This document shows, piece by piece, positions 1 through 18,284 of a stretch of 18,284 nt of DNA. This DNA is from Aulosira sp. ZfuVER01. GTDB taxonomy: Bacteria; Cyanobacteriota; Cyanobacteriia; Cyanobacteriales; Nostocaceae. A model generated the notes under the pieces. The model saw only the letters and a list, made by a program, of their open reading frames with translations. It did no database searches and had not been told where the DNA came from. The translations under genes and the position numbers were made by a program. How positions within the stretch are numbered: position 1 is the first letter of the stretch; the number at the start of each line of letters is the position of its first letter. The stretch spans positions 1-18,284 of the forward strand of contig JAVRCV020000017.1 of the NCBI GenBank assembly GCA_034530615.2, in the 5' to 3' direction.

Positions 1-46
1 TTAGATTACATCTTATGCTTCCTTCCAGCTTAAGTTGACACCAATG
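1..46 (-). mobile_element. End of a repeated IS/MITE-like element (CATTGGTGTCAACTTAAGC... terminus), truncated by the window edge
   Basis: Bases 1-47 are the exact reverse complement of 18233-18279. The junction interrupts a REP-like palindrome (GTAAGGGTTTAGCAATGCT| on the - strand). Confidence 0.65.
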
Positions 47-332
47 AGCATTGCTAAACCCTTACCCACTTTTGGGCATACTGAATTTGATTTAGGTGCG
101 ATCGCCAGAAAATAGGACATAAATATTTTAATTCCCGTTCTGGATAATCAATATTTCTATTAACGGACTTATTTTCTAGAGGAATTATTAAAAATAAGAT
201 GATTAAAATATATTTTTTTTGTCACTTTTCTCTTCAAAAAATCATAGGAAAATATCAATTTATTGCGGAAGATAGTAATGAAAAGCGGTAATCTGCTATA
301 TGCAAAATATGATATTTTCCTAGTAATGCGCT

Positions 333-1496
333 ATGCCATTTTTATTAAATTCTCAGAATGTCTTAGATTATTTAACTAGACATAACCTTTGCTTTCAAGT
401 AGAGAAAGACCAAATTGAGATAGAGTTGAAAGCTGCCAAAAATTTTAATTTGTTACTAACCCTGCCAAATAATCAAAAGCTGTTAGTTAAGCAAGAACGG
501 CACAATCATGAAGGAAAGGCATCTGGTGAATTTTTAAGTGAGTGGCGAGTTCAAGAAGTCTTACAAAGATTTCCAGAACTAAATCATCTTCACCCATCAC
601 TACCAGTGATATTACATTTTGATACAGAAAATTCTATTATCGTTTTTAGATACCTGGATGATTATCAGGATGCAATGGAATTCTACACAAAGGAAAAAAT
701 TTTTGATAGTGAAATCGCTATAGCAATTGGTACTTGCCTAGCTACTATCCATCGTCATACTTTCAATAACCAGGAATATCAAGATTTTTTATCTAAGAAT
801 TTAGATAACTCTAGAACAGAACAGGTGAGAAATTTAATTCGGGGGTTGGAACGGATAGAACCAGAAATTTTTGGTGTAGTACCTGCTGATGGATTGAGAT
901 TTTTTGCCCTGTACCAACGCTACGACAGTTTAGGAGAAGCTCTGAGAAACTTGGGTAATGCTGTTATTCCTTGTTGTTTAACCCACAATGATTTAAAGCT
1001 AAATAATATATTAGTTCATAAAAATTGGCAGCAATCAACTAACAGTATTGTACGCCTAATTGATTGGGAACGTTCTGCTTGGGGAGATCCAGCTTTTGAT
1101 TTAGGAACACTTATTAGTAGCTACGTACAATTATGGCTAGGTAGCCTAGTTATTAGTAAATCTTTAAGTCTTGAGGAATCTCTAACTTTAGCGATGACTC
1201 CTTTAGAACAACTTCAGCCTTCAATTGCTACATTAACTCAAGTTTATTTGCAGACATTTCCAGAAATTTTAGAACACCGTCCTGATTTTTTACTGCGGGT
1301 AATGCAATTTACAGGTTTTGGTTTAATTCAAGGAATTCAGTCCATGATTCAGTATCAAAAATCTTTCGGCAATGTAGGTATTGCTATGCTTCAGGTTGCC
1401 AAAAGCTTATTATGTCGTCCAGAACAATCAATACCGACAATTTTTGGTGCGATTGGTACGAGTAAATTAATTAGACAAACTGCTTTGACTGCTTAA
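333..1496 (+). CDS. lanK: APH/phosphotransferase-fold Ser/Thr peptide kinase, class V lanthipeptide LanK (LxmK/TvaC-like)
   Basis: 387 aa. LLVKQE lysine, HNDLKLNN catalytic loop (HxDxxxxN), LIDWE Mg-binding motif, WGDPAFDLG. Directly upstream of a HopA1-like gene and lanM. Confidence 0.85.
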   Translation: MPFLLNSQNVLDYLTRHNLCFQVEKDQIEIELKAAKNFNLLLTLPNNQKLLVKQERHNHEGKASGEFLSEWRVQEVLQRFPELNHLHPSLPVILHFDTENSIIVFRYLDDYQDAMEFYTKEKIFDSEIAIAIGTCLATIHRHTFNNQEYQDFLSKNLDNSRTEQVRNLIRGLERIEPEIFGVVPADGLRFFALYQRYDSLGEALRNLGNAVIPCCLTHNDLKLNNILVHKNWQQSTNSIVRLIDWERSAWGDPAFDLGTLISSYVQLWLGSLVISKSLSLEESLTLAMTPLEQLQPSIATLTQVYLQTFPEILEHRPDFLLRVMQFTGFGLIQGIQSMIQYQKSFGNVGIAMLQVAKSLLCRPEQSIPTIFGAIGTSKLIRQTALTA

Positions 1497-1520
1497 CTAT
1501 TTTCTGATAATTCAATCATT

Positions 1521-2633
1521 ATGCAATTACTTAACTCTGTTCAGAGTCAGCTTCAAGCTGGGATAAATCAGCGATTACTAGATGTTCTAGAAGATATTGT
1601 TAACAAGGTAGAAATTAATTTTGATTTCTCCATTCGCCATCCAGATTATAAACCATTGGAAATACCTGCTGAAGCTGTTGAACGCTTTCAAAAATTACCT
1701 GGAGAAATGCAGCAAAAATATCTCAGTCTGCAATTGCGGAGTTTTCTGTATGGTATTTATTACAATGGTTCAATGCGAACCGAACTAGCAGCAGATAAAA
1801 AAGAAAATAATTTGCCCTTAGATTTAGAAAATAATACAGTTTTAGGGGTAGATATTGGTTTTTATAAACAATTGCATGACAGTAATTATGGAGAGGGATA
1901 TTTTCAGCCTGGCTGGTCGATTTTGAGAGAAGAAAGTGATGGCAGTTTGGCAGTTAGTAGGGGTGGATTGAGACTGCATATTCAAAAAGATAGGCATTTA
2001 CTAGCATCTGATAAATTTGCTGTTGTGGGTGATGTAATTGCGATTAAAATGCCTAAAAATGTGGTACAAAGTGGATTTTATATGGCGGTTGGTAATGCCG
2101 GATTATATCGCAATGATTTAGAAAATCAACAAATTGTGCGAATATATTTCAATTTAACTCCTTCAGGCGCTGTTGCGGTCATGGGTAATATAACGCAGCA
2201 TTTGAATGAGAAAAATATACCTTTTCAATTTAAAGTTTTGTATCATCCTAAAGATTACAAACGCCACGATTCAGGGGTTTTGTATTTTGACAAGCAGGAT
2301 TATGAAGTAGTAAAGCAATCTTTAAACTCTATTTATATAGAAAATCAAGGGGACTTTAAATCTGAAATTCCCTTGTTTACTAAAGAACTAGCACCAGGGT
2401 TAAGTTTAGCAGAAGAACCAGATCAAAAGTTTGCCGAAAGGGAAAGTTTTGGGATGAATCGCTGTCAGATAATTGCAAATGGTTTGTTAGAAGCTTGGTA
2501 TCAGGGAGATAATTCGCCCCAAGGACGGATGAAAGCAATTCAAGAGCAATTTTCGCTTGTAGGAATTGATTTCGAGCGTGTTCACCTTAATGCCAACTCT
2601 GAGGATATTTACAAAGCCTTGGATTTATCTTAG
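1521..2633 (+). CDS. lanY: HopA1-family protein; predicted phosphoSer/Thr lyase of a class V-type dehydratase (LanY-like)
   Basis: 370 aa. Motifs VRIYFNL, FQFKVL, RHDSGVLY, PLFTKELAPGLSLAEEP and ESFGMNRCQIIA are typical of HopA1-like proteins paired with APH kinases in RiPP clusters. Starts 24 bp after the kinase stop. Confidence 0.82.
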   Translation: MQLLNSVQSQLQAGINQRLLDVLEDIVNKVEINFDFSIRHPDYKPLEIPAEAVERFQKLPGEMQQKYLSLQLRSFLYGIYYNGSMRTELAADKKENNLPLDLENNTVLGVDIGFYKQLHDSNYGEGYFQPGWSILREESDGSLAVSRGGLRLHIQKDRHLLASDKFAVVGDVIAIKMPKNVVQSGFYMAVGNAGLYRNDLENQQIVRIYFNLTPSGAVAVMGNITQHLNEKNIPFQFKVLYHPKDYKRHDSGVLYFDKQDYEVVKQSLNSIYIENQGDFKSEIPLFTKELAPGLSLAEEPDQKFAERESFGMNRCQIIANGLLEAWYQGDNSPQGRMKAIQEQFSLVGIDFERVHLNANSEDIYKALDLS

Positions 2634-2636
2634 CCA

Positions 2637-5600
2637 ATGTCATTAAAATATTGTTTAAAAGATTTTGTAAACGAAGTATCAGTTTTAGAGATTTGTAGCA
2701 TGGAAATATCAGCCTCAAAATTATCGCAAATAGCTATCAACGCAACTTTTTTTTCTGAACAAATCAATAATAAGGATTGCAAAAATATCAATCCTCAAAA
2801 GCTTGACCAAAATTTAATTGAAAAACGGCTTAAAAATTGGTGTAAAGCAGTTGGAGGAGAAGAAAAACTTAAACAACGTCTCCATTGGGATAGATTAGAT
2901 TTAAATACAGTTCGTCCCTTACTAGTAACAGCAGATATTGGAGAAGATTATAATTTACCAACTTGGACAGAAACTCTTAAAGAATTAATTCAAAGTGGCA
3001 TAGCTTCTTTATTTAATCTAGAGGGAGCAGAAAAATTACCACTTGATCCTCAAAAGCCTTTACCTTTTGAAGATTTTTATTTTCCATTTATCTTAGTAGC
3101 ACGGCGTAAATTATCTGCGACATTATCTCCAAACAATCCTTTTGATTTACTAAGTAAAGAAGCATACACAGCCTTAGAATATAGTTTGCTACAACAACTA
3201 GTAAATTTAGGAACAGAAACTTTACTGCTTGAATTCAATCAATTGCGGTCAAATCAAGTTTCTGCAAACCAGACTGATTTTATAGAAAATAATAGCGGAA
3301 ATGACAGTCAATTTCTGTATCGCACCTTCATTCAAAATCTTCTCCAAGATGGAGGCTTAGATTTTTTTGAACGTTACCCTGTGTTAGCAAGGCTTATCGC
3401 TACAACTATTGATTTTTGGGTAAAAAATACTACTGAATTTATCCAACGGTTACAAGCTGATATTCCAGAAATAGAACAGACATTTTCCCCGGATATAAGC
3501 ATCGGAAAAGTCAAGGAAATAGAAACTGCTCTCTCAAATCCCCACAATGGCGGGCGCAGCATTTTAGCGATTACCTTCTCTTCAGGTGTCAAAATTGTCT
3601 ATAAACCTAAAGACTTGAGTCTAGATATAGCTTTCAATCATTTACTAGACTGGTGTAACCAACAGGATATATCTTTAGCCTTCAAAGCTACCAAAATTCT
3701 CAAACGTCAAGAATATGGCTGGGTTGAATTTATTTATCACCAACCTTGTGAGAATCAAACCGCAGTCAAAAACTTCTATAAAAGAGCAGGAATGTTATTA
3801 TCACTACTGTTTGTATTAGGAGCTAAGGACTGTAGCTCTGAAAATGTTATTGCCAATTCTGAATATCCAATTCTGATTGATGCTGATATCTTGATGCATC
3901 CTATACTCAAAAGCAACGATGAATCAGAAGACTGGTTTAAAGATTCAGTTTTAAAAGTGGGGTTTTTACCTAATTGGGAAGGTAATACATTCTCAGCAAA
4001 TGCTCAAGATTCCAGTGTACTTGGTAATATTTATCCCCAACAAGTTAATTCTTCTAGAGAGTGGAAATTTGTTAACACAGATGGAATGCATTTAGCTGCG
4101 AAAACTGCAATTATTCCTTCTGGTACTAATGCGGTAATTCTAGAAGGTAAACCTGTTTCTCCCAGGAACTATGTAGAGGCAATTGTTACTGGCTTTGAGG
4201 AAATATACCGCTTATTAATCAAAAATAAAGAAACTTTGATGGGTGAAGAAAGTTCTCTATCACCCATCAAATCATTAAAGTCTCGATTTATCCCGCACCC
4301 ATCAATCATCTATGCTATCGCCGCTAAAAACAGCCTCAATCCTCAATCTTTGCGTAATGGCATAGAATATAGCATTCTGATTAATAGTTTAATTGATACT
4401 TTTAGCCGTTCTTTGCTAAAAGTTGAAGCAAATCCAGAAATTTGGGTAATTTGGCAAGCAGAAACAAGGTCTTTACAACAGCAAGATATTCCCTATTTCT
4501 CTGTAAGCTGTGATAGTGATGATTTAGAAATTGAACAAGACAAGTTAATTAAGCAGTTTTTTAAAATATCCAGTTACCAAAGGTTAATTACTCAACTGCA
4601 AAATCTTGATGAACAGGATTTAACTATACAAATTAAATTAATTCGGATGAGTTTTGATGCCAAGTTTGCTCATTTAACAACGAACAATGCTGCTTTACAG
4701 GGTAATTTACCACAATTACACTCACTTACTACTGAAGAATTACTGCAAGAAGCTGTAGAAATTGGCAATAATCTTGTCTCAAATGCGATTTGTAATTCTA
4801 ACGGATGCAACTGGATTAATTTAGATTATATGTTCCAGGCTAATCGCTACCAACTCCAGCCGTTAGATGATTCTTTATATAGAGGGCGTGCTGGAGTAAG
4901 TTTGTTCCTAGCAGCCTTAGCAAAAATAACTGGTAAAAATGAATTTAAAGAGGTGGCTTTAGCTGCTTTATCACCTTTGCAACAATCGCTAAAAAAAGCA
5001 GAAATCTGCAAAGAAATACTAGATTCAGAATTTGGTTTATTGGGTATAGGTGGTTTTATCTACAGTCTAGTTAAAATTAGTCAATTTTTGGCACAGCCAA
5101 ATCTTTTAGAATCTGCCCATTTTGCAGCAAAACTATTGACAAAAGAGGTAATCACTACTGATGAAAAGCTGGATATTATGTGGGGAGTTGCGGGAGCAAT
5201 TCCAGGTTTATTAACCCTTTATCATCAAACAGGCGAACAAGCTGTGTTAGACATAGCAGTCACCTGTGGCAATCATTTATTATCACATCGAAGTAATAGT
5301 AACCCTAGAGCATGGGTAACAATAGAAAGTAAAAAACCTTTAACTGGTTTTTCTCACGGAGCAGCAGGTATTTCTCTTTCTCTATTGCGACTATATGCTG
5401 CTACAGCAGATATAGCTTTTTTAGAAGCTGCAAAAGAGGCAATTGAATATGAAAAAAGTGTCTTTGATGAATCAGTTCAAAACTGGCCAGATTTCCGTTT
5501 ATCGGAAAAAACAAATCAAATTAACTTCTTGCATACTTGGTGTCATGGAAGTGCTGGAATTGGGTTAGCTCGTTTAGGTAGTTTGTCAATTATACAGACA

Positions 5601-5942
5601 GAAGAAATTTACTCAGACATTAATATCGCTTTAGAAACTGCTCAAAAGTATGGAATCCCCAGCACAGATATAGACCATATCTGCTGTGGACACATGGGTA
5701 GAACCGAACTGTTTATTTTAGCATCTCAAAAATTGGATAATCAAGAATGGCTAAACATTGCCATAAAACAGGCTGCATGGGTAATAGAAAGGGCAAAAGC
5801 AAATGGAGAATATTCTTTTTCTTCTCACTTGTATAAATCTGCTTATAGCCCTAGTTTTTTCCGAGGTTATGCAGGTATAGGTTATCAATTCCTACGTTTA
5901 GCATTTCCTGAATCTTTACCTTCAGTCTTAATTTGGGAGTAA
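2637..5942 (+). CDS. lanM: Class II lanthipeptide synthetase LanM (degenerate-looking dehydratase domain plus LanC-like CCG-type cyclase)
   Basis: 1101 aa (alternative ATG at 2700). YPVLARL, IVYKPK, GWVEFI and QQDIPYF in the N-terminal domain; LYRGRAG, GFSHGAAG, NWPDFR, WCHGSAG, HICCG and FFRGYAGIGY in the cyclase domain. Confidence 0.95.
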   Translation: MSLKYCLKDFVNEVSVLEICSMEISASKLSQIAINATFFSEQINNKDCKNINPQKLDQNLIEKRLKNWCKAVGGEEKLKQRLHWDRLDLNTVRPLLVTADIGEDYNLPTWTETLKELIQSGIASLFNLEGAEKLPLDPQKPLPFEDFYFPFILVARRKLSATLSPNNPFDLLSKEAYTALEYSLLQQLVNLGTETLLLEFNQLRSNQVSANQTDFIENNSGNDSQFLYRTFIQNLLQDGGLDFFERYPVLARLIATTIDFWVKNTTEFIQRLQADIPEIEQTFSPDISIGKVKEIETALSNPHNGGRSILAITFSSGVKIVYKPKDLSLDIAFNHLLDWCNQQDISLAFKATKILKRQEYGWVEFIYHQPCENQTAVKNFYKRAGMLLSLLFVLGAKDCSSENVIANSEYPILIDADILMHPILKSNDESEDWFKDSVLKVGFLPNWEGNTFSANAQDSSVLGNIYPQQVNSSREWKFVNTDGMHLAAKTAIIPSGTNAVILEGKPVSPRNYVEAIVTGFEEIYRLLIKNKETLMGEESSLSPIKSLKSRFIPHPSIIYAIAAKNSLNPQSLRNGIEYSILINSLIDTFSRSLLKVEANPEIWVIWQAETRSLQQQDIPYFSVSCDSDDLEIEQDKLIKQFFKISSYQRLITQLQNLDEQDLTIQIKLIRMSFDAKFAHLTTNNAALQGNLPQLHSLTTEELLQEAVEIGNNLVSNAICNSNGCNWINLDYMFQANRYQLQPLDDSLYRGRAGVSLFLAALAKITGKNEFKEVALAALSPLQQSLKKAEICKEILDSEFGLLGIGGFIYSLVKISQFLAQPNLLESAHFAAKLLTKEVITTDEKLDIMWGVAGAIPGLLTLYHQTGEQAVLDIAVTCGNHLLSHRSNSNPRAWVTIESKKPLTGFSHGAAGISLSLLRLYAATADIAFLEAAKEAIEYEKSVFDESVQNWPDFRLSEKTNQINFLHTWCHGSAGIGLARLGSLSIIQTEEIYSDINIALETAQKYGIPSTDIDHICCGHMGRTELFILASQKLDNQEWLNIAIKQAAWVIERAKANGEYSFSSHLYKSAYSPSFFRGYAGIGYQFLRLAFPESLPSVLIWE

Positions 5943-5963
5943 AATAATAAAATTAAAAATTTC

Positions 5964-6002
5964 ATTGCTAGGAACGCTACGCAAACCTTCCTTCCTCGCA
6001 AT
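5964..6002. repeat. Degenerate palindromic repeat after lanM; possible terminator or processing hairpin
   Basis: ATTGCTAGGAA (5964-5974) pairs with TTCCTCGCAAT (5992-6002), one mismatch. Resembles the inner stem of the 7005-7150 element. Confidence 0.4.
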
Positions 6003-6379
6003 AACAGAAGATTAGTGGATTTTACAAAAGTGTGATGCTCCCTGCTTGCTATGAGGAATTAGCAATTCTATTTTCTAGAACAAAATTTACATCTAGAATA
6101 ATTTATCATTCATCAGCACAAAATTTTTATTGTGCTGATTTTTTATGTGTTTAGCTAATCTTGTACAATTAAAGTGACAAAAATAATTTATTTTTTTCTT
6201 AAAAATATTCAATAATAGTAGACGAATAAAATTTTTAGTAATGAAGTCCATGTAATTCTTATTTATATAAATGATCATGAATTAATTTAGGCTTAAAGAG
6301 GAACATAAATGTAATCTTTATGTCATAAAAATGCTTTGTTATTTGTGGATTTTAGCAATTTCAATAGCTATTATAGGGA

Positions 6380-6410
6380 TATAAATCAAGCATAAAGAGT
6401 TTGATTTATA
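6380..6410 (+). promoter_or_regulatory. 5'-UTR stem-loop of precursor 1, just downstream of a TATTAT -10-like hexamer (6369-6374)
   Basis: TATAAATCAAGC-ATAAAGA-GTTTGATTTATA forms a 12-bp stem with one G-U pair. Homologous copy at 6721-6751. Confidence 0.55.
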
Positions 6411-6450
6411 AGTTCTACTAAAAACAAATAACGATTGGAGAAAAGAACAC

Positions 6451-6636
6451 ATGGCTAATATCAATATAAAAGATTTATTGAATCTAAATCTGACAGGTGC
6501 TGAGTTATTTAACGATTCAGAAAGTTTTCTAAATGAACTGAGTGACGAAAGCGAGCAAGTAATTGGTGGTCACAAAACAGTGTATTGCCAGTTACCTAGC
6601 TGTAAGGAAACTAAGGTTATAATCAAGGCTGTCTAG
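6451..6636 (+). CDS. lanA: Lanthipeptide precursor 1: 40-aa GG leader plus 21-aa core HKTVYCQLPSCKETKVIIKAV
   Basis: GGAG RBS. Leader ...GAELFNDSESFLNELSDESEQVIGG. Core has 2 Cys, 1 Ser and 2 Thr. Paralog of 6786..6995. Confidence 0.9.
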   Translation: MANINIKDLLNLNLTGAELFNDSESFLNELSDESEQVIGGHKTVYCQLPSCKETKVIIKAV

Positions 6637-6720
6637 TTTTTGTTTTAGCACTTACAGTTACGGGAAAATAACAATATTATTAAGGGTGCTTTACATTGTG
6701 TTAATGCACACTAATAAAAC

Positions 6721-6751
6721 TATTAATCGAGCATAAATTATTCGATTGATA
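6721..6751 (+). promoter_or_regulatory. 5'-UTR stem-loop of precursor 2
   Basis: TATTAATCGAG-CATAAATTA-TTCGATTGATA aligns without gaps to 6380-6410, with pairing-preserving changes. Confidence 0.55.
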
Positions 6752-6785
6752 GCCAGATAAAACAAAATCATGGAGGTTAAAGAGA

Positions 6786-6995
6786 ATGGCTAATATCAAG
6801 GTAAATGATTTATTGAATCTCAACCTGACTGGCGGTGAATTATTTAATGATTCAGAAAGCTTTCTGACTGAATTAAGCGATGAAAGCGAGCAAATAGGAG
6901 TAATTGGCGGTAAATGCTTTTTATTAAGTTGGTATTGTTGTACCCCTACCGTCGTCCAAGATTGCCCCCCAGATTGGTTAGAGAAAAATCAATAA
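6786..6995 (+). CDS. lanA: Lanthipeptide precursor 2: 42-aa GG leader plus 27-aa core KCFLLSWYCCTPTVVQDCPPDWLEKNQ
   Basis: GGAGG RBS. Leader nearly identical to precursor 1, ending VIGG. Core has 4 Cys, 1 Ser and 2 Thr. Confidence 0.9.
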   Translation: MANIKVNDLLNLNLTGGELFNDSESFLTELSDESEQIGVIGGKCFLLSWYCCTPTVVQDCPPDWLEKNQ

Positions 6996-7004
6996 TTAGT
7001 TGTA

Positions 7005-7150
7005 AGTAGTTAGATATAATTAATTACACAATGTCATTGCGAATGGAGCGTTCGCGTAGCATCCCGAAGGGAAGCGGAATGAAGCAATCGCATGGGTTGG
7101 GATTGCTTCGCTTGGCTCGCAATGACTGTAAATATTTTTGTCTAATTACT
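7005..7150. mobile_element. MITE-like element with TA duplication and nested inverted repeats
   Basis: Ends AGTAGTTAGA / TCTAATTACT flanked by TA (7003-7004, 7151-7152). Inner inverted repeats GTCATTGCGA/TCGCAATGAC (7033-7042, 7117-7126) and GAAGCAATC/GATTGCTTC (7081-7089, 7101-7109). Confidence 0.7.
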
Positions 7151-7211
7151 TACAACCAACAAAAATAGTTTGCTTTCGACTCTCATATAGAGTTTTCAAT
7201 CATTGACAACT

Positions 7212-7256
7212 ATAGCCAGCAACTTATTTATTCAATAGGAATTGCTGGCTATTTTA
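7212..7256. terminator. Hairpin between the convergent precursor and export transcripts; probable terminator
   Basis: ATAGCCAGCAA (7212-7222) / TTGCTGGCTAT (7242-7252) is a perfect 11-bp stem followed by a T-rich run. Confidence 0.6.
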
Positions 7257-7282
7257 TTGTTAAAATTGACTGAAATTATTAC

Positions 7283-8020
7283 CTATTCTATATGTTTAAA
7301 AACCTCAATTACCTGTATTTGCTGCTTTATCCACTCTTCAAAAAAATTTGACATAATTTGATAACGTAACTTCTCACTCAATTCTGGTTGAATAATCTCT
7401 TCCACCCTAATCAAATGTACTCCCTTGGAAGTAATAATTGGCTTGAGAAGTTGGGGTGGTTTAGCAGCAAAAACAGCAGCAGAAATTTCTGGCTTTAAAT
7501 CTTTACGATTTACTTTCCCTCGATATCCACATTTGCGACGTAATTCTGTATCTTGGATGTATTGATTAGCTACATCATAAAAACTAGTTTCACCTTCCTT
7601 AACGGCATAAAATAGTTCCATAGCCAAGTCTTCATCATCTAAGACAACTTCATATATCAAAGCACCAGCATAGTCTAGTTGATTTTCAAAAAAATAGGGT
7701 TCAACTTTATCTGCAAATAGATGTTGAGCTAACTTATTAGCAAGCAAATTCTTGTAAACTACTTCTTCAAAGTCATCTAAAGATAGAGCGTGTTCTTCTA
7801 ACCATTTCCATGTGTCTTCAGCAGTTTCTAGTTTATTCATTAATCGGAAATTATCTGCTGCTTTTTGAAGTTCCTCAGTCTCTACTTTGATACTCATTTT
7901 AGATACAGCATTTTCAATCACCTTTTGGGTAATAATCTTCTCAATTAAATCAGGAATTTGGCAATATTGCTTGACGATATGCAAAATATCTTGGTTGGTA
8001 ATTGTGATAGTTTGTGACAT
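7283..8020 (-). CDS. PpiC/parvulin-like peptidyl-prolyl isomerase (foldase) of a peptide-export operon
   Basis: 245 aa. SFYDVANQY, CGYRGKVNRKDLKPEISAAVF and PIITSKGVHLIRVEE match a rotamase pattern. Last gene after the ABC exporter and HlyD. Confidence 0.85.
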   Translation of the reverse strand: MSQTITITNQDILHIVKQYCQIPDLIEKIITQKVIENAVSKMSIKVETEELQKAADNFRLMNKLETAEDTWKWLEEHALSLDDFEEVVYKNLLANKLAQHLFADKVEPYFFENQLDYAGALIYEVVLDDEDLAMELFYAVKEGETSFYDVANQYIQDTELRRKCGYRGKVNRKDLKPEISAAVFAAKPPQLLKPIITSKGVHLIRVEEIIQPELSEKLRYQIMSNFFEEWIKQQIQVIEVFKHIE

Positions 8021-8077
8021 GATTTGGCTCCAAAGATAAATCTTAATTGCACAAAGTTAGGATAAGCTCTTAACTAT

Positions 8078-8204
8078 CAATACTTGGCGGTTAAGATGCT
8101 TATCTTCCCTAAACTTCCTGATAAAGCAGGGAAGTTTCGCCCCAGTTTTAAGAGGGTTTGGGGGATCTGAGAATTTTATTTAAGTCATTAACCGAACAGT
8201 ATTG
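8078..8204. mobile_element. MITE-like element with 17-bp imperfect terminal inverted repeats and TAT flanks
   Basis: CAATACTTGGCGGTTAA (8078-8094) / TTAACCGAACAGTATTG (8188-8204). TAT on both sides (8075-8077, 8205-8207). Confidence 0.65.
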
Positions 8205-8213
8205 TATTAACTG

Positions 8214-9725
8214 TTAGCTTCCTTCTTGCAACTGTTTAAATGGGTCGAGTAGAAAATCAATAATCCGACGCTGGCGTACTATTACTTCTGCTGTTGCTGT
8301 ATCGCCAGGACGTAAAGGTGTACATTGATTTTTACTAGGTATACAATTAATATTCAGGGAAATTTCTAAGTTATATGCAGCAACTTTTCCATTAGGTGTA
8401 TCAACTTCTAATGTAGTCGGTGAAATTTCTACTAATTCCCCTTCAATAATTCCATAATCTTGAAACGGATAGGCATCAAATTTAAGTTTTACTGGCAATC
8501 CTTTACGCAAGGAACCACTTTCAGATGTTGGCATTTGTGCCCGAACAATCAAAGGTGAACCTTCTGGAGCAATCTCTGCAACCATTGTTCCCGGTTGGAC
8601 AACTGCACCTGGACGTTGAATTGGTAGTTGAAATACTCTACCTGCAATGGGAGATTTTAAGACTCGTTGCTGTAATTGCAATTGCAAGCTGTTTATTTGA
8701 CTATTAGTTTGAGCAATTTCTGCTTGTAATGTTGTCATTTCTGTGTCTAAATTATTTAATTGTTCCTCACTTTTAAGTACAGCCAGTTTTCCAGAATGAG
8801 TTAAGGTTTGATAACTTCGTCTTTGTTCTTTTAAGCGTAAATATGCTTGTTCAATTTCTGCCTTTGCTTGACGAATGGTGCGCTGATAGCTGCTTTGTTG
8901 TTCCGCCAAACGTAGATTGGCTTGTTTAATATCTGATTTGCTTTGTTCGTATAATCTCTGTCTTTCTTTGGCTATATCTTGCTTATCTACAACATTAATT
9001 TCTGGAATAGCACCTGCTTGTTTAAGTTTGCTGTAGCGTTCTACTTCCCTTTGGGCACTTTCTAAACTATTTTCTAATAATTTATTCGCAGTTTGAGTTT
9101 GTTCAATAGATTGTCGTGCCTGATTAACTTGGGTTGTTTTTTCTTCTTGTTGAATTTCATAGGAATTTTTTAAAGCTGTTAAATTTTGCTGTACCTGCTC
9201 GATTTGGGCTTGTTTTTCTAACTCTTGGGCTTGATTTTGTTGGCGTTGAGTGGCTAAAGATACAACGATCTGATTTTTCAGCAGATTTAATTGCGATCGC
9301 CTATTTAATTGCCCTTCTAATTTTTCCTTACTTTGACGCAAGTCAGACTTCACTAATTCTGAATCTAATATCAATACAGGTTCTCCAGGCTTGACTAGAT
9401 CGCCTTCTTTGACTGGGATAGAAGTGACTGTCCCAGGTACAGCGCTATCTAATTTAAATGTTTTACCCTTTGGCTCCAGTCTTCCCCTAGCTGTGCCAGT
9501 TTCATCTACTTTAGATAGCATTGCCCAAGGCAGAGAAATAGAGATAAAACTGAGCAGAAAATACAACATTCCCCTTGTCCAAACTTGGGGTAATCCATCA
9601 AGTAAATCTTTAGTATGCTCAGACAAATCATTGGGTAATTGAGTTACGTTTGGAGAGGGATTTCCTGGTTCTTTATATTCATTAATTGCAGTTGCTAATT
9701 TACTGTTTAATATCTCAGACATCAT
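8214..9725 (-). CDS. hlyD: HlyD-family membrane fusion / periplasmic adaptor protein
   Basis: 503 aa. N-terminal TM segment, ARGRLEP, VKEGDLVKPGEPVL, a long Gln-rich coiled coil, LKSPIAGRV, KFDAYPFQDYG and LRPGDTATAEV. Confidence 0.93.
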   Translation of the reverse strand: MMSEILNSKLATAINEYKEPGNPSPNVTQLPNDLSEHTKDLLDGLPQVWTRGMLYFLLSFISISLPWAMLSKVDETGTARGRLEPKGKTFKLDSAVPGTVTSIPVKEGDLVKPGEPVLILDSELVKSDLRQSKEKLEGQLNRRSQLNLLKNQIVVSLATQRQQNQAQELEKQAQIEQVQQNLTALKNSYEIQQEEKTTQVNQARQSIEQTQTANKLLENSLESAQREVERYSKLKQAGAIPEINVVDKQDIAKERQRLYEQSKSDIKQANLRLAEQQSSYQRTIRQAKAEIEQAYLRLKEQRRSYQTLTHSGKLAVLKSEEQLNNLDTEMTTLQAEIAQTNSQINSLQLQLQQRVLKSPIAGRVFQLPIQRPGAVVQPGTMVAEIAPEGSPLIVRAQMPTSESGSLRKGLPVKLKFDAYPFQDYGIIEGELVEISPTTLEVDTPNGKVAAYNLEISLNINCIPSKNQCTPLRPGDTATAEVIVRQRRIIDFLLDPFKQLQEGS

Positions 9726-9752
9726 GTCTCCTTTGAGTTTAAATTTGGGAGT

Positions 9753-9857
9753 TATAGCAATCCTATTTCATTTGTAAAAATATCGCTGTTGATTGTTAGA
9801 AATTGTGTTGCAACGGTGACTGTATGCAATATTTTAGTTTTTCATTTATGACTGCTA
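9753..9857. repeat. Degenerate MITE-like remnant
   Basis: Left end TATAGCAATCCTATTTCATTTG has partial inverted similarity to TCATTTATGACTGCTA at the right end. Confidence 0.3.
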
Positions 9858-9898
9858 GATGAGTTAAAAATTAGGAATTCAATTCTCCTATCCTCAAG

Positions 9899-12634
9899 TT
9901 ATACTGATGCGTCTAACTGTTGTTGATTGAGATAGAAATAATGTCCGCGTTTAGTCATCAATTCTTGGTGAGTTCCACTTTCAATTAACACACCTTTATC
10001 TAATACCAAAATCAAATCGGCATTTCTGACAGTGGAAAGACGATGGGCAATCACTAAGGTAGTTCTTCCCTTAAGAATAGTATTAAAATTCTTCTGAATA
10101 ATCCGTTCCGATTCTGTATCTAAATGAGAAGTTGCCTCATCTAAAATTAATAATCGAGGATTGCCTAATAAAGCTCTAGCTATGGCAATTCTTTGCTTTT
10201 GTCCTCCAGACAGCATCCCTCCACCTTCACCAATTTGGCTTTCATAGCCCATTGGCAACTTTTTAATAAACTCATCAGCACCGGCTTGAGTTGCTGCTTC
10301 GATAATTTCTTCTAATTTTGCGCTGGGATGTCCTAAGCTAATATTTTCCCGAATTGTACTACCAAATAAAAAGGTATCTTGGTCAACTACTCCCACTTGT
10401 TGACGTAAGGAACGTAAGGAAATACTGGTAATATCACATCCATCAATTAAGACTTTGCCATCGCTTGGTGGATATAAGCCTAAAACTAACTTAGAAATCG
10501 TAGTTTTCCCCGAACCACTGCGACCGACTAATGCTACCATTTGTCCTGGCTGAATTTGAAAACTAAGATTTTCAATCACATTTCTATCGCTTTCAGAGTG
10601 ATAGCGAAAGCTGACGTTTTCAAAACGGATGTCACCTTGAATCAAAGGTAAATTTTGTCGGATTTGATGTTGTAAATTCTCCTCTGGCTCTGTGTCTAAT
10701 ACATCATTAATGCGTTCCATTGCAATGACAACTTCCTGTAATTGGTTCCACAATACTGCTAAACGTTGGAAAGGGGAAATAATAGTCCCTAGCAGCATAT
10801 TAAATGCTACAAGTTGCCCAATCGTTAGCTGATTCTGAATTACTAAATGTGCCCCAAACCATAGTAATGATGTAGTTGCAATTGCTTGAATAGAATTACT
10901 AAAAATTTGTAAGCGATTGCTAATAACTTGTCCAGAAAAACCAGTTTTAACTGCTTTGTGTAATAACTCTTCCCAATGCCAGCGTACCGTTTGTTCTACA
11001 GATGTAGATTTAATTGTTCGCACACCAGAAATAGCTTCAATGAGATAACTACTTTCTTGGTTATAAGCACTAAATATTTCCCTGGAATTCTTCTTTAAAA
11101 AGGGTGTAGCAATCAACGCCAATAAAAAGAATGGCGGTACAATAACTAGAGAAAGTAAAGCCATTTTCCAACTGTACCAAAACATCAATCCTACATAGAT
11201 AAATACAGTGAGTAAATCTAATAGAATTGATAATGCTTCACCAGAAAGAAAGCGTTGAATTTTGCGGTTTTCTTGGACGCGAGAAATAATATCGCCAACA
11301 TAACGAGTTTCAAAGAAACTTAAAGGAAGTTGTAGGGTATGACGGATAAATCCGACAATCAAAGCTACATCTAGCCTATTAGCTGTATGGTCTAGTAAAT
11401 ATTGCCGCAAACCAGTTATTGCTACCCGAAATAGATTAAAAATGAGCAACCCTAAACCTACAGCCGTTAAGGTCAACTCAGAACGCTGCACCACCACTCT
11501 ATCGAGAATAAACTGGGTAAATAAGGGGGTGATGAGTCCAAATATTTGGATAAATAGGGAAGCAAGAAATACTTCCAGCAACACCAAGCTGTGTGGTTTA
11601 ATTAACTCAAAAAATTGCCAGAAGGGTGTTGTAGTCTCTTCTGTATCCTTTAAAAGGGCTGTGGGTTGCAGAAGTAATGCATATCCAGTCCAATCTGCTT
11701 TAAATTCGCGATGAGTGAGGGTACGCTGACCAATGGCGGGGTCTGCAACTATGACATATTTCTTGGTGATTTCATAGACAACTATATAATGCTTCCCTTC
11801 CCAGTGAACGATCGCAGGTAATTGTTGCTTCCCTAATTGGTCGAGACTGGCTTTTACTGGTCTAGTGTTAAATCCGATACTTTCTGCTGCTACTGACAAT
11901 CCTCGCAGAGATGCACCGTTGCGGTCAACATTAGCAATATCTCGCACACGATTAACACTAAAGCGTTTTCCCCAATAACGAGACACCATCACCAAACAAG
12001 CTGCACCACAGTCTGATGAACTCTGTTGGGCAAAAAATGGATAGCGTTTAGTTACGCGCTGCCATAAATGCCCTACTCTTTGAGTGGGGTTAGGAAAGTA
12101 GGCTTTGCCGATCTTTTTCTGTGGATTACTTGCTGTTGCTGGGGAAGCACTCGTCGGTTCTTCCCGTTCAGCAAGCTGGCGTGGGACATCGGGAGATGGG
12201 GGTTCGCTGTCAGACTTAACTAATAGGGAATTTCGTGCTTGTGCCTGGGTGCGTAAATGTTCGTAAATTTGTGGATACTTAGCTATCAATTGCGACAGCA
12301 CTTCACTGGGAAGAAAAGCCAGGTGTAAGTTAACACTTGCTCTGGCTGCATAAGGTTTAAAACCTGCTTCCTGAAACAAGGTAAATTCACCAAACGATCC
12401 TCCTAACTCCAAGGTTGCAATCAGTTCGCCTGCATCATCAAGCAATCTAACTTTGCCTGCAAGCACAATATAAATACCTGGTTCAACGTCTGTTCCTTGC
12501 CAAAATTTTCCTACCTTGGGGGTAAGAGATTTAACTTGTTGAAGGCAGTGCTGTAAGTCTTCTGAGGAGAGAGAATAACCTAAGACAGTGCATAATTGCT
12601 GCAAAGACAGCAACTCTGATAGATTTTGCGCCAT
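9899..12634 (-). CDS. lanT: Peptidase-containing ABC exporter (cNMP-binding-like N-domain, C39 peptidase, TMD, NBD), LanT/HlyB type
   Basis: 911 aa. C39 motifs QQSSSDCGAAC, HWEGKHYIVV and VADPA. Walker A GRSGSGKT, signature LSGGQKQR, Walker B ILDEATS, H-loop IAHRLST. N-terminal GIYIVLAGKVRLL...GSFGE...YAARAS resembles a cNMP-binding fold. Confidence 0.95.
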   Translation of the reverse strand: MAQNLSELLSLQQLCTVLGYSLSSEDLQHCLQQVKSLTPKVGKFWQGTDVEPGIYIVLAGKVRLLDDAGELIATLELGGSFGEFTLFQEAGFKPYAARASVNLHLAFLPSEVLSQLIAKYPQIYEHLRTQAQARNSLLVKSDSEPPSPDVPRQLAEREEPTSASPATASNPQKKIGKAYFPNPTQRVGHLWQRVTKRYPFFAQQSSSDCGAACLVMVSRYWGKRFSVNRVRDIANVDRNGASLRGLSVAAESIGFNTRPVKASLDQLGKQQLPAIVHWEGKHYIVVYEITKKYVIVADPAIGQRTLTHREFKADWTGYALLLQPTALLKDTEETTTPFWQFFELIKPHSLVLLEVFLASLFIQIFGLITPLFTQFILDRVVVQRSELTLTAVGLGLLIFNLFRVAITGLRQYLLDHTANRLDVALIVGFIRHTLQLPLSFFETRYVGDIISRVQENRKIQRFLSGEALSILLDLLTVFIYVGLMFWYSWKMALLSLVIVPPFFLLALIATPFLKKNSREIFSAYNQESSYLIEAISGVRTIKSTSVEQTVRWHWEELLHKAVKTGFSGQVISNRLQIFSNSIQAIATTSLLWFGAHLVIQNQLTIGQLVAFNMLLGTIISPFQRLAVLWNQLQEVVIAMERINDVLDTEPEENLQHQIRQNLPLIQGDIRFENVSFRYHSESDRNVIENLSFQIQPGQMVALVGRSGSGKTTISKLVLGLYPPSDGKVLIDGCDITSISLRSLRQQVGVVDQDTFLFGSTIRENISLGHPSAKLEEIIEAATQAGADEFIKKLPMGYESQIGEGGGMLSGGQKQRIAIARALLGNPRLLILDEATSHLDTESERIIQKNFNTILKGRTTLVIAHRLSTVRNADLILVLDKGVLIESGTHQELMTKRGHYFYLNQQQLDASV

Positions 12635-12669
12635 GAAATCCTGAATTTCTACTTACTTTTTATGTGTAT

Positions 12670-13269
12670 TTATTTTTCTGATTCCAAAAGAAAAAATCCG
12701 GTAAAATTACGTGAATTTTCGGATTTGAGGTCAGAGATTAAGATTTTTTGTCCTGCGGTCTTCTCTGTATTTTCACCTTTAGATGGGCTGGGTTTGGGGA
12801 TTGTTGATAATCCCATTTGTTTGAGGACTCGCTTGAGGTGGCGATCGCTAACTTCAATTCCTAATTCTTTCGCTAAATGCTTTTTCAACCAGCTGACTGT
12901 CCAGCGTCTAAACCCATAGCCATAATCGCGGGGACTTTGGGAAAGCAACTGTTGTAAGCGTTCTAAATATTCCTGACTAATAGCTTTCGGACGACCAAGA
13001 GGACAATCCTGCCATTGGTGCGCCATCCCCGTCCGGGCAATGTGCATCCAATGCCGTGCTGTCGCCGGACAACATGCTAAGGTCTGACAAATTTCCGTTT
13101 GGGTTTTGCCGTCATCCGCCAACAACATAATTTCTATTCGCTGACGATAAGACTCAGACAAATCCTCTTGCAGGTTTTTTTGCAGCAGTTTGCGCTGAAA
13201 TGGTGTTAAATACTTACCTGCCCCAATATTTGGGATATCAACTTCAGGTTGCTCAAAATCTTTTGACAT
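12670..13269 (-). CDS. Helix-turn-helix protein resembling the DNA-binding half of IS630 transposases (no DDE domain); putative regulator
   Basis: 199 aa. RQRIEIMLLADDGKTQTEICQTLACCPATARHW (HTH), GRP linker, SPRDYGYGFRRWTVSWLKKHLAKELGIEVSDRHLKRVLKQMGLS (winged HTH). Ends 35 bp upstream of the exporter start. Confidence 0.8.
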   Translation of the reverse strand: MSKDFEQPEVDIPNIGAGKYLTPFQRKLLQKNLQEDLSESYRQRIEIMLLADDGKTQTEICQTLACCPATARHWMHIARTGMAHQWQDCPLGRPKAISQEYLERLQQLLSQSPRDYGYGFRRWTVSWLKKHLAKELGIEVSDRHLKRVLKQMGLSTIPKPSPSKGENTEKTAGQKILISDLKSENSRNFTGFFLLESEK

Positions 13270-13342
13270 TACAGTATCGGCTGTTATTCCCTATAGATTG
13301 ACTGATAAACTTTTATGCACCCTGAAAGTTAAAGTAGATATA

Positions 13343-13357
13343 ACCGTAAAATACGGT
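13343..13357. promoter_or_regulatory. Palindromic candidate operator upstream of the HTH/export operon
   Basis: ACCGTA-AAA-TACGGT, extendable with a 1-nt bulge to AGATAT...ATATCT (13336-13363). Confidence 0.4.
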
Positions 13358-13583
13358 ATATCTTAAGTTTTGTTTAATACTCTGTAGAATACAGACGCAA
13401 GTTTTTTGCACCCAAAAGTCAATACTTTGGGAATTGATACTGGTAACTACACAGATAATAAATAATTTTCCGTAAAATTTTATTGATTCAACTAGCTGCA
13501 TTGATTAAAAGGGTATGGGTATCGGATACCAACCCCAAGTCTGGATTGGCCAGCAATACATCCATGACCTCAAGCCCCCGTAA

Positions 13584-13687
13584 TACCATTTCACTTTAAT
13601 ATTGATACACATAGGCAGCAGGGGGCAGGGTGCAGGGGGAAAGAATTAGAGATTCATCATGTGTATCAGGTATTTCGTGAAATGGTA
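13584..13687. mobile_element. MITE-like element with TAA duplication and internal heptamer repeats
   Basis: TACCATTTCAC / GTGAAATGGTA perfect terminal repeats, TAA at 13581-13583 and 13688-13690. Inner TGATACACAT/ATGTGTATCA. GCAGGGG-GCAGGGT-GCAGGGG at 13618-13638. Confidence 0.75.
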
Positions 13688-13828
13688 TAAGACGCAGTTG
13701 CTAAAAGCGATCGCTCATGTACATACCGCGATAACCATCACTGAACAACTGCTTCTGCAATTGATTTGGGGCGATCGCTACATTAGTCCATCATCACTGG
13801 CAGGATAGCACCCACAGTTTTCTGAATA

Positions 13829-14635
13829 CTAACTGCCAGTAGAACAGTAGTATCGCTCGCCTACTTTCCAAAGCTGAAGCGCAACTATCAGAAAGAGAAT
13901 TCCTGCGATTGGCGATACGTAACAAAACCATAAAGGCACTAAAAAATTATCTTCTTTTTCAAGTACTGCGAGCAGAGGAAAATAGCTGACGCAGCCAAGC
14001 GGTATCAAGAAGGTAAAAAATCGCTGAAACCATTTGCTATAAATTGAAAGCGGATATTGAGCAGTTTCAACTCCTCCATAAGTGAGGATATTCATAATTT
14101 CTAGCGATTCAATAGTCCAGAATGTCAGGGTTGCTTGCACAATCACGATACCAACAAATAGTGCAACCCCACCAATAAATGATGTACCCAAAAGCCAAAA
14201 TGTTTTAAAAGTAAAAGGAATGTATAGCGTTGAAAGCGACCACGCCATCAACACAATTCCTTGAGCAACTCGTCCGATTCGTTTAAAGGTAAATTCTGTG
14301 CCTAAAAGTTGCAGTACTGTAGTGCGTGGACGAAGCAGTAAACGGTCGAAATCACCACTTTTAATTATTTTTGTAAAATAATCAAACCCTTTTCCCAGAG
14401 CATCAGCACAGGCAAAAGAAATATTAATCATGCCATAAAACAGCGCAACTTCCGCAAGAGTCCACGTACCAATACTATTAAAGCGAGAAAATAATGCCCA
14501 AATTCCGAAAAATTCAATAACAGTTACTAAAAATTGCCCTAATACTTGCAGCCAAAAGGACACTTGATACTGCATTTGCGACTTGAAAGATACAGAAATA
14601 TATCGAAAGTAAAGCCAAAAATTGTTCACACTCAA
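13829..14635 (-). CDS. ABC-2 family exporter permease (DUF990-like)
   Basis: 268 aa, hydrophobic, with IKSGDFDRLLLRP and QYPLSIY. Start is TTG 14635 or GTG 14629, after AGGAG. Confidence 0.9.
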   Translation of the reverse strand: MSVNNFWLYFRYISVSFKSQMQYQVSFWLQVLGQFLVTVIEFFGIWALFSRFNSIGTWTLAEVALFYGMINISFACADALGKGFDYFTKIIKSGDFDRLLLRPRTTVLQLLGTEFTFKRIGRVAQGIVLMAWSLSTLYIPFTFKTFWLLGTSFIGGVALFVGIVIVQATLTFWTIESLEIMNILTYGGVETAQYPLSIYSKWFQRFFTFLIPLGCVSYFPLLAVLEKEDNFLVPLWFCYVSPIAGILFLIVALQLWKVGERYYCSTGS

Positions 14636-14668
14636 TTCGCTCCTCTCACGCTAAATTACGAATTATTT

Positions 14669-15487
14669 TCATCCGCCTTGAATTACCAGCTTGCTTACAC
14701 CACGCTTCACAAGAAAACGTCCAAGGATAATAATGACGACTATCCAAATAATTTGATGAAGCAATACGTTAAACAGGGCATTTGGTGGCAGATTACCTGT
14801 AAACAGACGAAAAGGTTTATCAAGTAATCCTGAAAAAGGAAGGACATTTAAAATCGGCTTGATCCAATCAGGAAAAAGTGGCAGAGGCACTATCATTCCA
14901 GAGAAGATAGTCAGAATAGGCGGGAAAACACTATTAATTCCTTCGCCAGAAATTGTCCACATCATTGATATAGTAAGAAGCATAGTCAATGTAGAGGAAA
15001 GTAGAATTGCACCGATAAAGGCAAGAAGAAAAGCACCAAAAGCAGCAAATGAAGGTGGAAAAGTAAGCGATCGCTCTGTTAGCCCTACAATAGGTAAAAG
15101 AAAAATTGTGACGCTAAGAAGCGGAATACCACGCAGTATCAAGGGTGCTGTACGCATTGCTAAAGCGCGAGTAAACCAAAAATTATAAAGGTCGGTGGGT
15201 CGCAGCAGGTCATATCCCACTCCACCAGTTCGGATTAATTCTTGAATTTCGCGATCGCCTGACCAAGGTACAATTGCTACCAGAAACGCTTGCCCAAGCC
15301 ACACATATCCTACAGCTTCGTGTAAAGTCATCGGTTGAGTAGTGGTTGCATGAGTGAAAAATGCTTCCAGAACCATCACTTTCACAAATCCCCAAAAAAA
15401 CTGAGTTCCCACTCCAGCTAAAGCAGCAGTACGATATTGCAACAGCAGTGCAAATCTCGCCAAAAACAGCGACCAGTATGCTGTCAT
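14669..15487 (-). CDS. ABC-2 family exporter permease (DUF990-like)
   Basis: 272 aa, with IRTGGVGYDLLRP, FSGMIVPLPLFP and C-terminal LVIQGG. ATG overlaps the ATPase stop (ATGA). Confidence 0.9.
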   Translation of the reverse strand: MTAYWSLFLARFALLLQYRTAALAGVGTQFFWGFVKVMVLEAFFTHATTTQPMTLHEAVGYVWLGQAFLVAIVPWSGDREIQELIRTGGVGYDLLRPTDLYNFWFTRALAMRTAPLILRGIPLLSVTIFLLPIVGLTERSLTFPPSFAAFGAFLLAFIGAILLSSTLTMLLTISMMWTISGEGINSVFPPILTIFSGMIVPLPLFPDWIKPILNVLPFSGLLDKPFRLFTGNLPPNALFNVLLHQIIWIVVIIILGRFLVKRGVSKLVIQGG

Positions 15488-16476: not shown

Positions 16477-16658
16477 ATATTATTGGAATGCAACCTTTTA
16501 CATTGTTAATGTATCGGCATGGTAGTTATTCGGAATGGCGATCGCTTGTTATGAGATATTGTCGCTCATTAAGTAAGCTCTAACTAGGTATTTATGTTAG
16601 CTTGGGGAATTTAGCCTCAACTTCGTTTAGATTAGGCTAGTATAGACGTAATTTTGTT

Positions 16659-18053: not shown

Positions 18054-18233
18054 TCAGTGTAGCAATCTTAATTTAGACTTCAGTGACTTGTAAGATCTTA
18101 TTTATTCATTTTTCCTCAAGCACTTTTACCGCGATGTTCTGTTTTAAGACAACGCGATCGCTTTTACAGAGCTTTTCATTTGCATGAAATACACGCTTTG
18201 AACATCAAATTATCATAAGGGCACAACATTGTT

Positions 18234-18284
18234 CATTGGTGTCAACTTAAGCTGGAAGGAAGCATAAGATGTAATCTAAGAACA
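18234..18284 (+). mobile_element. End of the same repeated element as at 1-46, in opposite orientation
   Basis: Exact inverted copy. The junction interrupts the REP-like ATAAGGGCACAACATTGTT|. Confidence 0.65.

Follow-up and report, generated by a model that had tools for sequence, protein, structure and literature searches.

Gene content of the locus

The DNA analysed here is an 18,284 nt stretch of the cyanobacterium Aulosira sp. ZfuVER01 (contig JAVRCV020000017.1 of GenBank assembly GCA_034530615.2, positions 1 to 18,284), referred to below as the window. It carries a putative lanthipeptide cluster in which the genes for a LanK-type kinase (K) and a LanY-type lyase (Y), the pair that forms the split dehydratase of class V systems, stand directly before the gene for a LanM-like protein, and two precursor peptide genes follow. 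This LanM combines an intact cyclase domain with a degenerate dehydratase domain. The core of the cluster comprises the following features (aa, amino acids; HMM, hidden Markov model; family matches are from a scan of the n = 15 open reading frames (ORFs) of the window against Pfam and NCBIfam):

333..1496, + strand: LanK-type peptide Ser/Thr kinase (APH fold), 387 aa; PF01636 APH, 52 bits
1521..2633, + strand: LanY-type phospho-Ser/Thr lyase (HopA1 family), 370 aa; PF17914, 201.1 bits
2637..5942, + strand: LanM-like protein, 1101 aa; degenerate DUF4135 domain and intact CCG-type LanC cyclase domain
6112..6139, + strand: terminator-like hairpin after LanM, weak evidence; stem of 10 pairs followed by a T run
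6451..6636, + strand: precursor peptide 1, 61 aa, core HKTVYCQLPSCKETKVIIKAV after a leader ending in VIGG; leader HMM E 3e-24
6786..6995, + strand: precursor peptide 2, 69 aa, core KCFLLSWYCCTPTVVQDCPPDWLEKNQ; leader HMM E 3e-25

The kinase, lyase, LanM and both peptide ORFs are all encoded on the + strand. A preliminary description of this DNA, made from the letters alone, had noted the tight packing of the first three genes, and the gaps it gave are correct: 24 bp between kinase and lyase (stop at 1496, ATG at 1521) and 3 bp between lyase and LanM (stop at 2633, ATG at 2637). It had also placed two double-glycine (GG) leader peptides with Cys, Ser and Thr residues after LanM; both are present, with leaders ending in VIGG. 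An alternative in-frame LanM start (ATG at 2700) would give a protein of 1080 aa, the form found in the protein database (P0001). The hairpin between LanM and the first precursor gene suggests that the peptides may be transcribed apart from K-Y-LanM; it was called by consensus match only, with 7 such sites in place of 4.2 expected.

LanM combines an intact cyclase domain with a degenerate dehydratase site

The LanM protein has the two-domain architecture of class II synthetases. It matches PF13575 (DUF4135) with 402.7 bits, covering positions 1-377 of 378, PF05147 (LANC_like) with 219.7 bits and TIGR03897 with 945.7 bits against a cut-off of 304. In the cyclase domain the WCHG and CCG motifs are present, with the zinc ligands and the acid-base His in place. 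To read the dehydratase site, residues were mapped by phmmer alignment to the solved CylM and LicM2 proteins, and roles were taken from Dong et al. 2015 (this and the other papers are cited here for the parts accessible to us). Nine positions were scored (CylM D252, H254, K274, D347, H349, N352, D364, R506, T512). The window LanM has Asn (N301 in its own numbering) at D252 ('SNPH' in place of 'GDSH') and Ser (S400) at H349 of the DxH motif ('KDCSSEN' in place of 'TDLHYEN'), which gives the signature NHKDSNDRS versus the canonical DHKDHNDR[T/S], so that the class II catalytic set is incomplete. In CylM, phosphate elimination has been assigned to four residues including D252, and phosphopeptides build up in D252 mutants (Dong et al. 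2015). The Ser at T512 was dropped as a deviation, since 9 of 35 canonical LanMs have Ser there.

Among 120 homologous LanMs from the protein database, the 85 closest (at least 43% identity in the DUF4135 region) form a clade of at least 85 clusters at 90% identity. The canonical nine-residue set is found in 2/85 of these clade members and in 34/35 of the next relatives. D252 is kept in 17/85 clade members, D347 in 43/85 and H349 in 29/85; D347 or H349 is missing in 78/85. An unbiased scan started from 36 canonical LanMs, in which 61 columns, 54 of them within DUF4135, reach a conservation of 95% or more; only five of these are lost in the clade, namely the equivalents of D252, a P-loop Gly, D347 and H349, and a fixed E-to-D change. 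The decay is limited to the P-loop and the catalytic loop, and the remaining domain and the zinc site are conserved: orthologues are 86% identical in the degenerate domain compared with 79-91% in the cyclase domain, and the zinc ligands C948, C995 and C996 and the His of the SHG motif (H886) are invariant in 51 clade members. Such conservation of a domain whose catalytic residues are gone typifies a pseudo-enzyme domain retained in a non-catalytic role. An assignment of LanM as a decaying pseudogene was rejected, since the protein is full length and 79-89% identical between species.

Conservation of kinase and lyase

The best NCBIfam match of the kinase is the LxmK model NF038156 (88.8 bits, below its cut-off of 315); its PF01636 match lies above the cut-off of 23.2 bits. 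K53, the catalytic loop H218-N-D220...N225 and D244 are invariant in 11 homologues, and the Mg-binding Asp is present. The lyase matched no NCBIfam model and detects LxmY (PDB 9dk1_B) with E 2.5e-8; 9DK1 is the crystal structure of LxmKY (PMC12141560). Its residues R207, K238, R248 and Y255, spaced 31/10/7, correspond to R187, K219, R229 and Y236 of CaoY, spaced 32/10/7, the roles of which were tested by mutagenesis (Liang et al. 2022, PMC9486802). All four are kept in 10/10 LanM-linked lyases. The window thus encodes, as class V systems do, an APH-type kinase and, adjacent to it, a HopA1-like lyase, each with its catalytic residues; judged by these, both K and Y look active.

Recurrence of the K-Y-LanM arrangement

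The preliminary description had proposed a genome search for K-Y-LanM synteny, and the arrangement does recur. A search with the lyase revealed four named Nostocales loci, in Nostoc linckia, Calothrix membranacea, Nostoc carneum and an Aulosira metagenome-assembled genome, at 79-90% identity. All four show K-Y-LanM followed by 1-5 peptides and then, on the opposite strand, genes for a peptidyl-prolyl isomerase-like protein (PPIase), an HlyD protein and an ABC exporter; protein identities over this whole set are 79-92%. K-Y-LanM was also found in genome G144 and on three metagenome contigs. Because it recurs in the Nostocales loci, in G144 and on metagenome contigs, the arrangement is not due to chance.

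In a sample of 401 cyanobacterial genomes, DUF4135 matches occur in 47 and HopA1 matches in 61, including 45/45 genomes of the window's own family. A LanM match lies less than 2 kb from a HopA1 match in three genomes (G000, G180 and G144), the G180 locus being a duplicate of L004. Gene context was read from 52 regions covering all full LanM matches of the genome sample and from 80 loci of a metagenome scan; that scan, run with the clade alignment, used cyclase-domain motifs and returned mostly ordinary LanMs, which served as controls, with clade members at 4/80 loci. A tree of 113 distinct LanMs whose gene context is known places the 11 degenerate proteins together in a single long-stemmed clade (support 1.0). 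At nine loci (the window, L001-L004, L016 and L068-L070) Y stands directly upstream of LanM, and K is there wherever the contig reaches. Another clade member (L067) has only 701 nt upstream on its contig. In G228 the degenerate LanM lies beside a peptide with the same leader (P0121), and the sole K-Y pair is about 700 kb away. There, LanM and peptide are found amid unrelated genes (L056; phosphatases, a GNAT), and the K-Y pair is part of a K-Y-PPIase-HlyD-ABC-helix-turn-helix (HTH) locus with Nif11 peptides and a radical S-adenosylmethionine (SAM) enzyme (L147).

No K or Y homologue was detected in the fetched flanks of 53 LanM ORFs outside the clade from the genomes, two genes being counted twice in overlapping fetched regions, or of 61 from the metagenome scan. 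In the genome set 48/53 are canonical, the exceptions being H349 replaced by I, L or Y in L040, L051 and L054 and D252E in L032 and L058. In the metagenome set 56/61 are canonical and complete, and the other 5 are truncated and canonical where readable. Across nine loci, the identities of LanM and Y to the window proteins co-vary (rho 0.996). The genome of the window holds four K-Y pairs and two LanMs, which are paired only in the window.

Precursor peptides

Core 1 contains 2 Cys, 1 Ser and 2 Thr (Cys 6 and 11, Ser 10, Thr 3 and 14) and core 2 contains 4 Cys, 1 Ser and 2 Thr. As there are three Ser/Thr per core, each window peptide could carry at most three rings. An orthologue of peptide 2 with 87% identity is encoded in L002. 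In 23 aligned peptides the leader residues G16, L19, E24, F26 and G42 are invariant, and the motif is common to LanM-linked and K-Y-only loci. The second LanM of the genome, which is canonical, adjoins a different precursor of 93 aa. The leader therefore tracks K-Y and not LanM.

The leader HMM was run over 11 LanM-linked and 24 K-Y-only loci. At the LanM-linked loci at least 2 core Cys were found in 24/24 matches (mean 3.46 Cys and 4.21 Ser+Thr), compared with 3/44 rows at the K-Y-only loci, where no other row has Cys (mean 0.14 Cys and 6.41 Ser+Thr); these 44 rows represent 41 distinct peptides, three being listed twice. At 12/24 K-Y-only loci, mostly of a type with quinone genes, the HMM had no match.

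Proposed pathway and alternatives

The preliminary description regarded a split dehydratase next to a LanM as redundant and proposed that K and Y dehydrate and LanM cyclises. The redundancy is resolved in that one of the two dehydratases has decayed, and the division of labour is supported at the level of comparative sequence evidence: the decay of the LanM site, the K-Y linkage, intact K and Y, and Cys-rich cores. We consider it rather probable that the three proteins act as one lanthionine synthetase on the GG-leader peptides, with dehydration by K and Y and cyclisation by the decayed LanM. Gene content, synteny, residue states, clade structure and peptide statistics are direct observations; from them we infer all of the enzymatic reactions, the sequence in which these occur and a role of the degenerate domain in docking. 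K would phosphorylate core Ser and Thr residues of both co-encoded precursors, as do LxmK and CaoK, and Y would eliminate the phosphate to give dehydroalanine and dehydrobutyrine, as do LxmY and CaoY. The two probably form a heterodimer as in LxmKY and CaoKY, and the motif G-x-(E/D)-L-F-x-D-S-E-S-F-L-x-E-L of the shared leader is the probable recognition element for both. The Cys-Cys-Cys zinc site of LanM would then join Cys thiols to these dehydro residues, closing (methyl)lanthionine rings, and the C39-ABC/HlyD exporter would cut after GG and export the product. The dead kinase-like domain of LanM was presumably kept for docking of the leader, for docking of K-Y or another partner, or for nucleotide sensing. 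A broader statement can be made only tentatively, and we stop a little short of asserting it: that the whole clade of at least 85 clusters consists of obligate pseudo-dehydratases whose lipid-kinase-like domain no longer catalyses and is under purifying selection as a K-Y-M docking module. On that reading a class II scaffold would have exchanged its own dehydratase for that of class V, an observable hand-over between two unrelated dehydration machineries, and the result could be argued to be a lanthipeptide class in its own right.

Several observations weigh against the three-protein synthetase. The link between K-Y and degenerate LanM belongs to one clade and is in effect one evolutionary event, and the locus and peptide counts come from kin and are not independent. 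Cys-bearing peptides are also encoded at K-Y loci without LanM (L013, L151 and L165), and two of the genomes concerned (G150 and G274) have no DUF4135 match in the genome sample. The full canonical set is present in two clade members (P0013 and P0014), and D252N is the sole difference from it in four more. The window LanM itself keeps its metal and ATP ligands and 7/9 scored residues (H254, K274, D347, N352, D364, R506 and Ser at T512), and the nucleotide-binding residues of its domain are still conserved, which also fits an active kinase. In CylM, H349A still yields a little dehydrated product and D252A dehydrates partially (Dong et al. 2015). Finally, four LanMs that do not belong to the clade and have no K-Y in their flanks also lack His349 (L040, L051, L054 and P0092).

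The retained residues, the residual activity of the CylM mutants and the LanMs with a non-His residue at 349 and no adjacent K-Y would all fit an arrangement in which both dehydratases work, LanM being a normal bifunctional enzyme and K/Y adding sites or speed, in effect a class II system to which a class V module is an accessory. So would the cores, in which the count of Ser and Thr about equals or exceeds that of Cys. Nevertheless Asp347 is replaced in 42/85 and His349 in 56/85 clade members while conservation persists in 49 of 54 other conserved DUF4135 columns, which is the pattern to be expected once selection on a site has ceased, and none of the canonical LanMs among the 114 ORFs examined has recruited K-Y; we regard this alternative as unlikely, if worth serious attention. 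A mixed chemistry, in which LanM phosphorylates and cannot eliminate (D252N) while Y removes the phosphates set by both K and LanM, takes up the assignment of D252 to elimination in CylM, where mutants accumulate phosphopeptides (Dong et al. 2015), and the fact that D252 is the most often replaced position of the clade, kept in 17/85. It appears improbable to us, since H349 and D347, which serve phosphorylation, are lost too, an intact K would be superfluous, and the literature searched showed no precedent. The same applies with still greater force to a third possibility, that K and Y serve peptides encoded elsewhere and LanM is a non-functional relic or has an unrelated role, which we judge very improbable. 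Four K-Y pairs in one genome, and the separate K-Y and LanM loci of G228, if these cooperate at all, are in its favour; against it, LanM is full length without stops at 79-89% identity between species and has an invariant zinc site, the adjacent peptides bear the leader of the K-Y family, and gene order is kept across nine distinct loci.

If dehydration by K/Y and cyclisation by the decayed LanM is correct, one enzyme class has replaced another within a working pathway: LanM would have kept its cyclase and its fold and ceded dehydration to an unrelated kinase and lyase. A natural pseudo-kinase LanM would allow enzymologists to separate leader binding and scaffolding from catalysis. The assignment would tie one subfamily of the large cyanobacterial K-Y peptide family, for which no product is known, to lanthionine chemistry, and for genome mining it advises caution, as the presence of LanM need not mean class II chemistry.

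Relation to known lanthipeptide systems

The class V split dehydratases (LxmK/LxmY and CaoK/CaoY, and TvaC/TvaD and TsaC/TsaD of the thioamitides) likewise consist of an APH-fold kinase next to a HopA1-like lyase. The window pair resembles them distantly (88.8 bits to the LxmK model with its cut-off of 315). It differs from them in its host, a cyanobacterium and not an actinobacterium, in a GG leader cut by a C39 exporter, and in having a LanM while no HFCD decarboxylase, F420 reductase or methyltransferase family was matched. According to Liang et al. 2022 (PMC9486802), class V was first defined by clusters without a synthetase gene of classes I-IV, whereas here LanM starts 3 bp after the lyase gene. 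Nor does the locus resemble the lexapeptide/cacaoidin type, with a LanX cyclase, HFCD and a C-terminal Cys for aminovinyl-methylcysteine: among the 15 window ORFs the Pfam scan gave no match to HFCD decarboxylase, reductase or methyltransferase families, no specific LxmX search being made, and neither core ends in Cys. The preliminary description had likewise seen no LanD/HFCD or methyltransferase gene and no core ending in Cys.

In some class V pathways LanK/LanY are combined with a cyclase of the LanC type (Pei et al. 2022, via the review PMC12328550). These agree with the proposal made here in that K/Y dehydrate and a zinc protein of the LanC fold cyclises; they differ in that their cyclase is a stand-alone LanC-like protein from Streptomyces, while that of the window is the C-terminal domain of a LanM with a decayed dehydratase domain. 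To place the system 'outside the standard classes', as the preliminary description did, was too strong, because class V pathways that combine K/Y and a LanC-fold cyclase are already published. Class V peptides have so far been known from actinobacteria only (2025 review, PMC12328550).

With class II enzymes of the ProcM-like type the window LanM shares DUF4135 and LanC domains, the Cys/Cys-Cys zinc motif (WCHG...CCG) and the use of one enzyme for several precursors with a conserved leader and diverse cores. It differs from them in the loss of dehydratase residues and in a leader that belongs to the K-Y family, the one beside the genome's canonical LanM being longer. We take this cyanobacterial LanM type to be the one labelled the 'ProcM-like CCG group'.

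Among the closest known systems are those of Eyles et al. 2021 (PMC8153245), who catalogued 1,340 HopA1 proteins and defined a cyanobacterial 'Family 1A', made up of 570 GG-leader peptides from 183 clusters. They reported a LanC-like cyclase in the vicinity of, or fused to, 20% of HopA1 proteins and stated that for these cyclases K-Y 'could catalyse the dehydration'. In their supplement the row of the Nostoc carneum orthologue has HopA1, phosphotransferase, PPIase, LANC_like, peptidase and transporter all equal to 1, and the orthologous N. carneum peptides are in their Network 1. A Moorea producens 3L row shows the same pattern, and a Pleurocapsa row has four Cys-rich peptides. Their text treats Family 1A as having no conserved Cys, Ser or Thr. 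The window belongs to this family, sharing its leader, multiple hypervariable cores, PPIase and C39 transporter. A full LanM neighbour or a degenerate kinase site is not stated in the parts of that paper seen. Liang et al. 2022 (PMC9486802) call the cyanobacterial peptides, which are equivalent to Family 1A, uncharacterised 'type-B' putative LanA, and their neighbourhood figure has LANC_like among the co-occurring families.

On the question whether the system was already described, the preliminary text had left the answer to a check of the literature on RiPPs (ribosomally made peptides with post-translational modifications). The co-occurrence of K-Y and LANC_like has been tabulated since 2021. 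Among the papers found, none describes a cyanobacterial K-Y beside a full LanM or a degenerate LanM dehydratase; subscription journals were thinly covered, and this is not proof that none was published. The papers on nostolysamides, nostolanthin and a latent-space cyclase were rejected as precedents, all being on canonical LanMs, as was Walker 2020, which does not mention APH or HopA1. The co-occurrence of K-Y, LANC_like, PPIase and C39 is thus prior knowledge, and the sequence data support a class V dehydratase acting here with a cyclase embedded in a decayed class II synthetase.

Export genes and further loci

Genes on the minus strand (PPIase, HlyD, ABC and HTH) converge on the precursor peptide genes:

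7283..8020, - strand: PPIase-like protein of an export/maturation operon, 245 aa; PF00639, 42.6 bits; TIGR04500, 77.5 bits (below cut-off)
8214..9725, - strand: HlyD-family membrane fusion protein, 503 aa; PF13437, 77 bits; TIGR01843, 231 bits
9899..12634, - strand: cyclic nucleotide (cNMP)-binding / C39 peptidase / ABC exporter, 911 aa; PF03412 140, PF00664 173, PF00005 128 and PF00027 33 bits
12670..13269, - strand: HTH protein like the N-terminus of IS630 transposases, 199 aa; HTH_32/33/23

The C39 exporter (9899-12634, 911 aa) named in the preliminary description is real, and presumably serves GG-leader cleavage and export; it lies on the minus strand and outside the interval 333-6995 in which the system had been placed. 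The PPIase gene is kept in L001-L004, L067, L068 and L147 and in K-Y-only loci. Homologues of the HTH gene with 50-84% identity are found directly upstream of the ABC gene in L147, L011, L003, L150 and L152-L154. A stray insertion sequence (IS) fragment at 12670-13269 was rejected, as the gene is conserved 5' of the exporter in these seven other loci; as the first gene of the export operon it probably encodes a domesticated DNA-binding protein that regulates the operon, and is not IS debris.

Only 332 nt separate the kinase from the contig end at which the window starts. The genes found 5' of the kinase in two relatives are ureE/F/G (urease accessory genes), a response regulator and a photolyase, so that the kinase marks the edge of the cluster. 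On the other side, ORFs 13313-13501 and 16659-18053 have no family match; the latter, on the + strand, encodes 464 aa with no match in Pfam or NCBIfam. Positions 13829-16476 (- strand) hold an ABC-2 type transporter operon of two ABC2_membrane_6 permeases and an ATPase. Neither this operon nor the 464-aa ORF has a homologue in the related loci checked; a putative self-protection role is possible.

The further K-Y pairs of the genome are L011 (G000:C55), L012 (G000:C11) and L013 (G000:C52). One is found with two Nif11 peptides, a radical SAM enzyme, an aldo/keto reductase, two PPIases, Cys-free GG-leader peptides and the same exporter, and another with a C39-ABC protein of 717 aa and a Ser/Lys-rich peptide. 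Yet another lies beside thioesterase, AMP-ligase, MenC-like, UbiA and chorismate-binding genes of the phylloquinone/menaquinone type. Pairs with such quinone genes occupy their own branch of the lyase tree and occur in at least eight genomes (L155, L158-L161, L163, L167). Regarding the lyases L012:9389-10477 and L013:9304-10392, the quinone-type copy of the genome has Gln at the catalytic Lys, and the C52 copy has Asn/Gln at Arg207/Tyr255. The quinone-type pairs may have a function other than peptide dehydration.

One metagenome K-Y-LanM locus (L070:13603-15706) encodes at least five precursors, three of them near-identical, with Tyr/Gly-rich cores ending in repeated CGNT; the Pleurocapsa peptides in the table of Eyles et al. 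2021 resemble them. The reciprocal case to the window LanM was also seen, namely LanMs with a canonical dehydratase that lack at least one zinc-ligand Cys (e.g. SHDC, FDEC, ANCW, TNCW). They are encoded at L045/L046 (G050:C41), L035, L038, L039, L044, L047, L049 and L057; G050 has three tandem LanM genes with altered ligand positions in all three.

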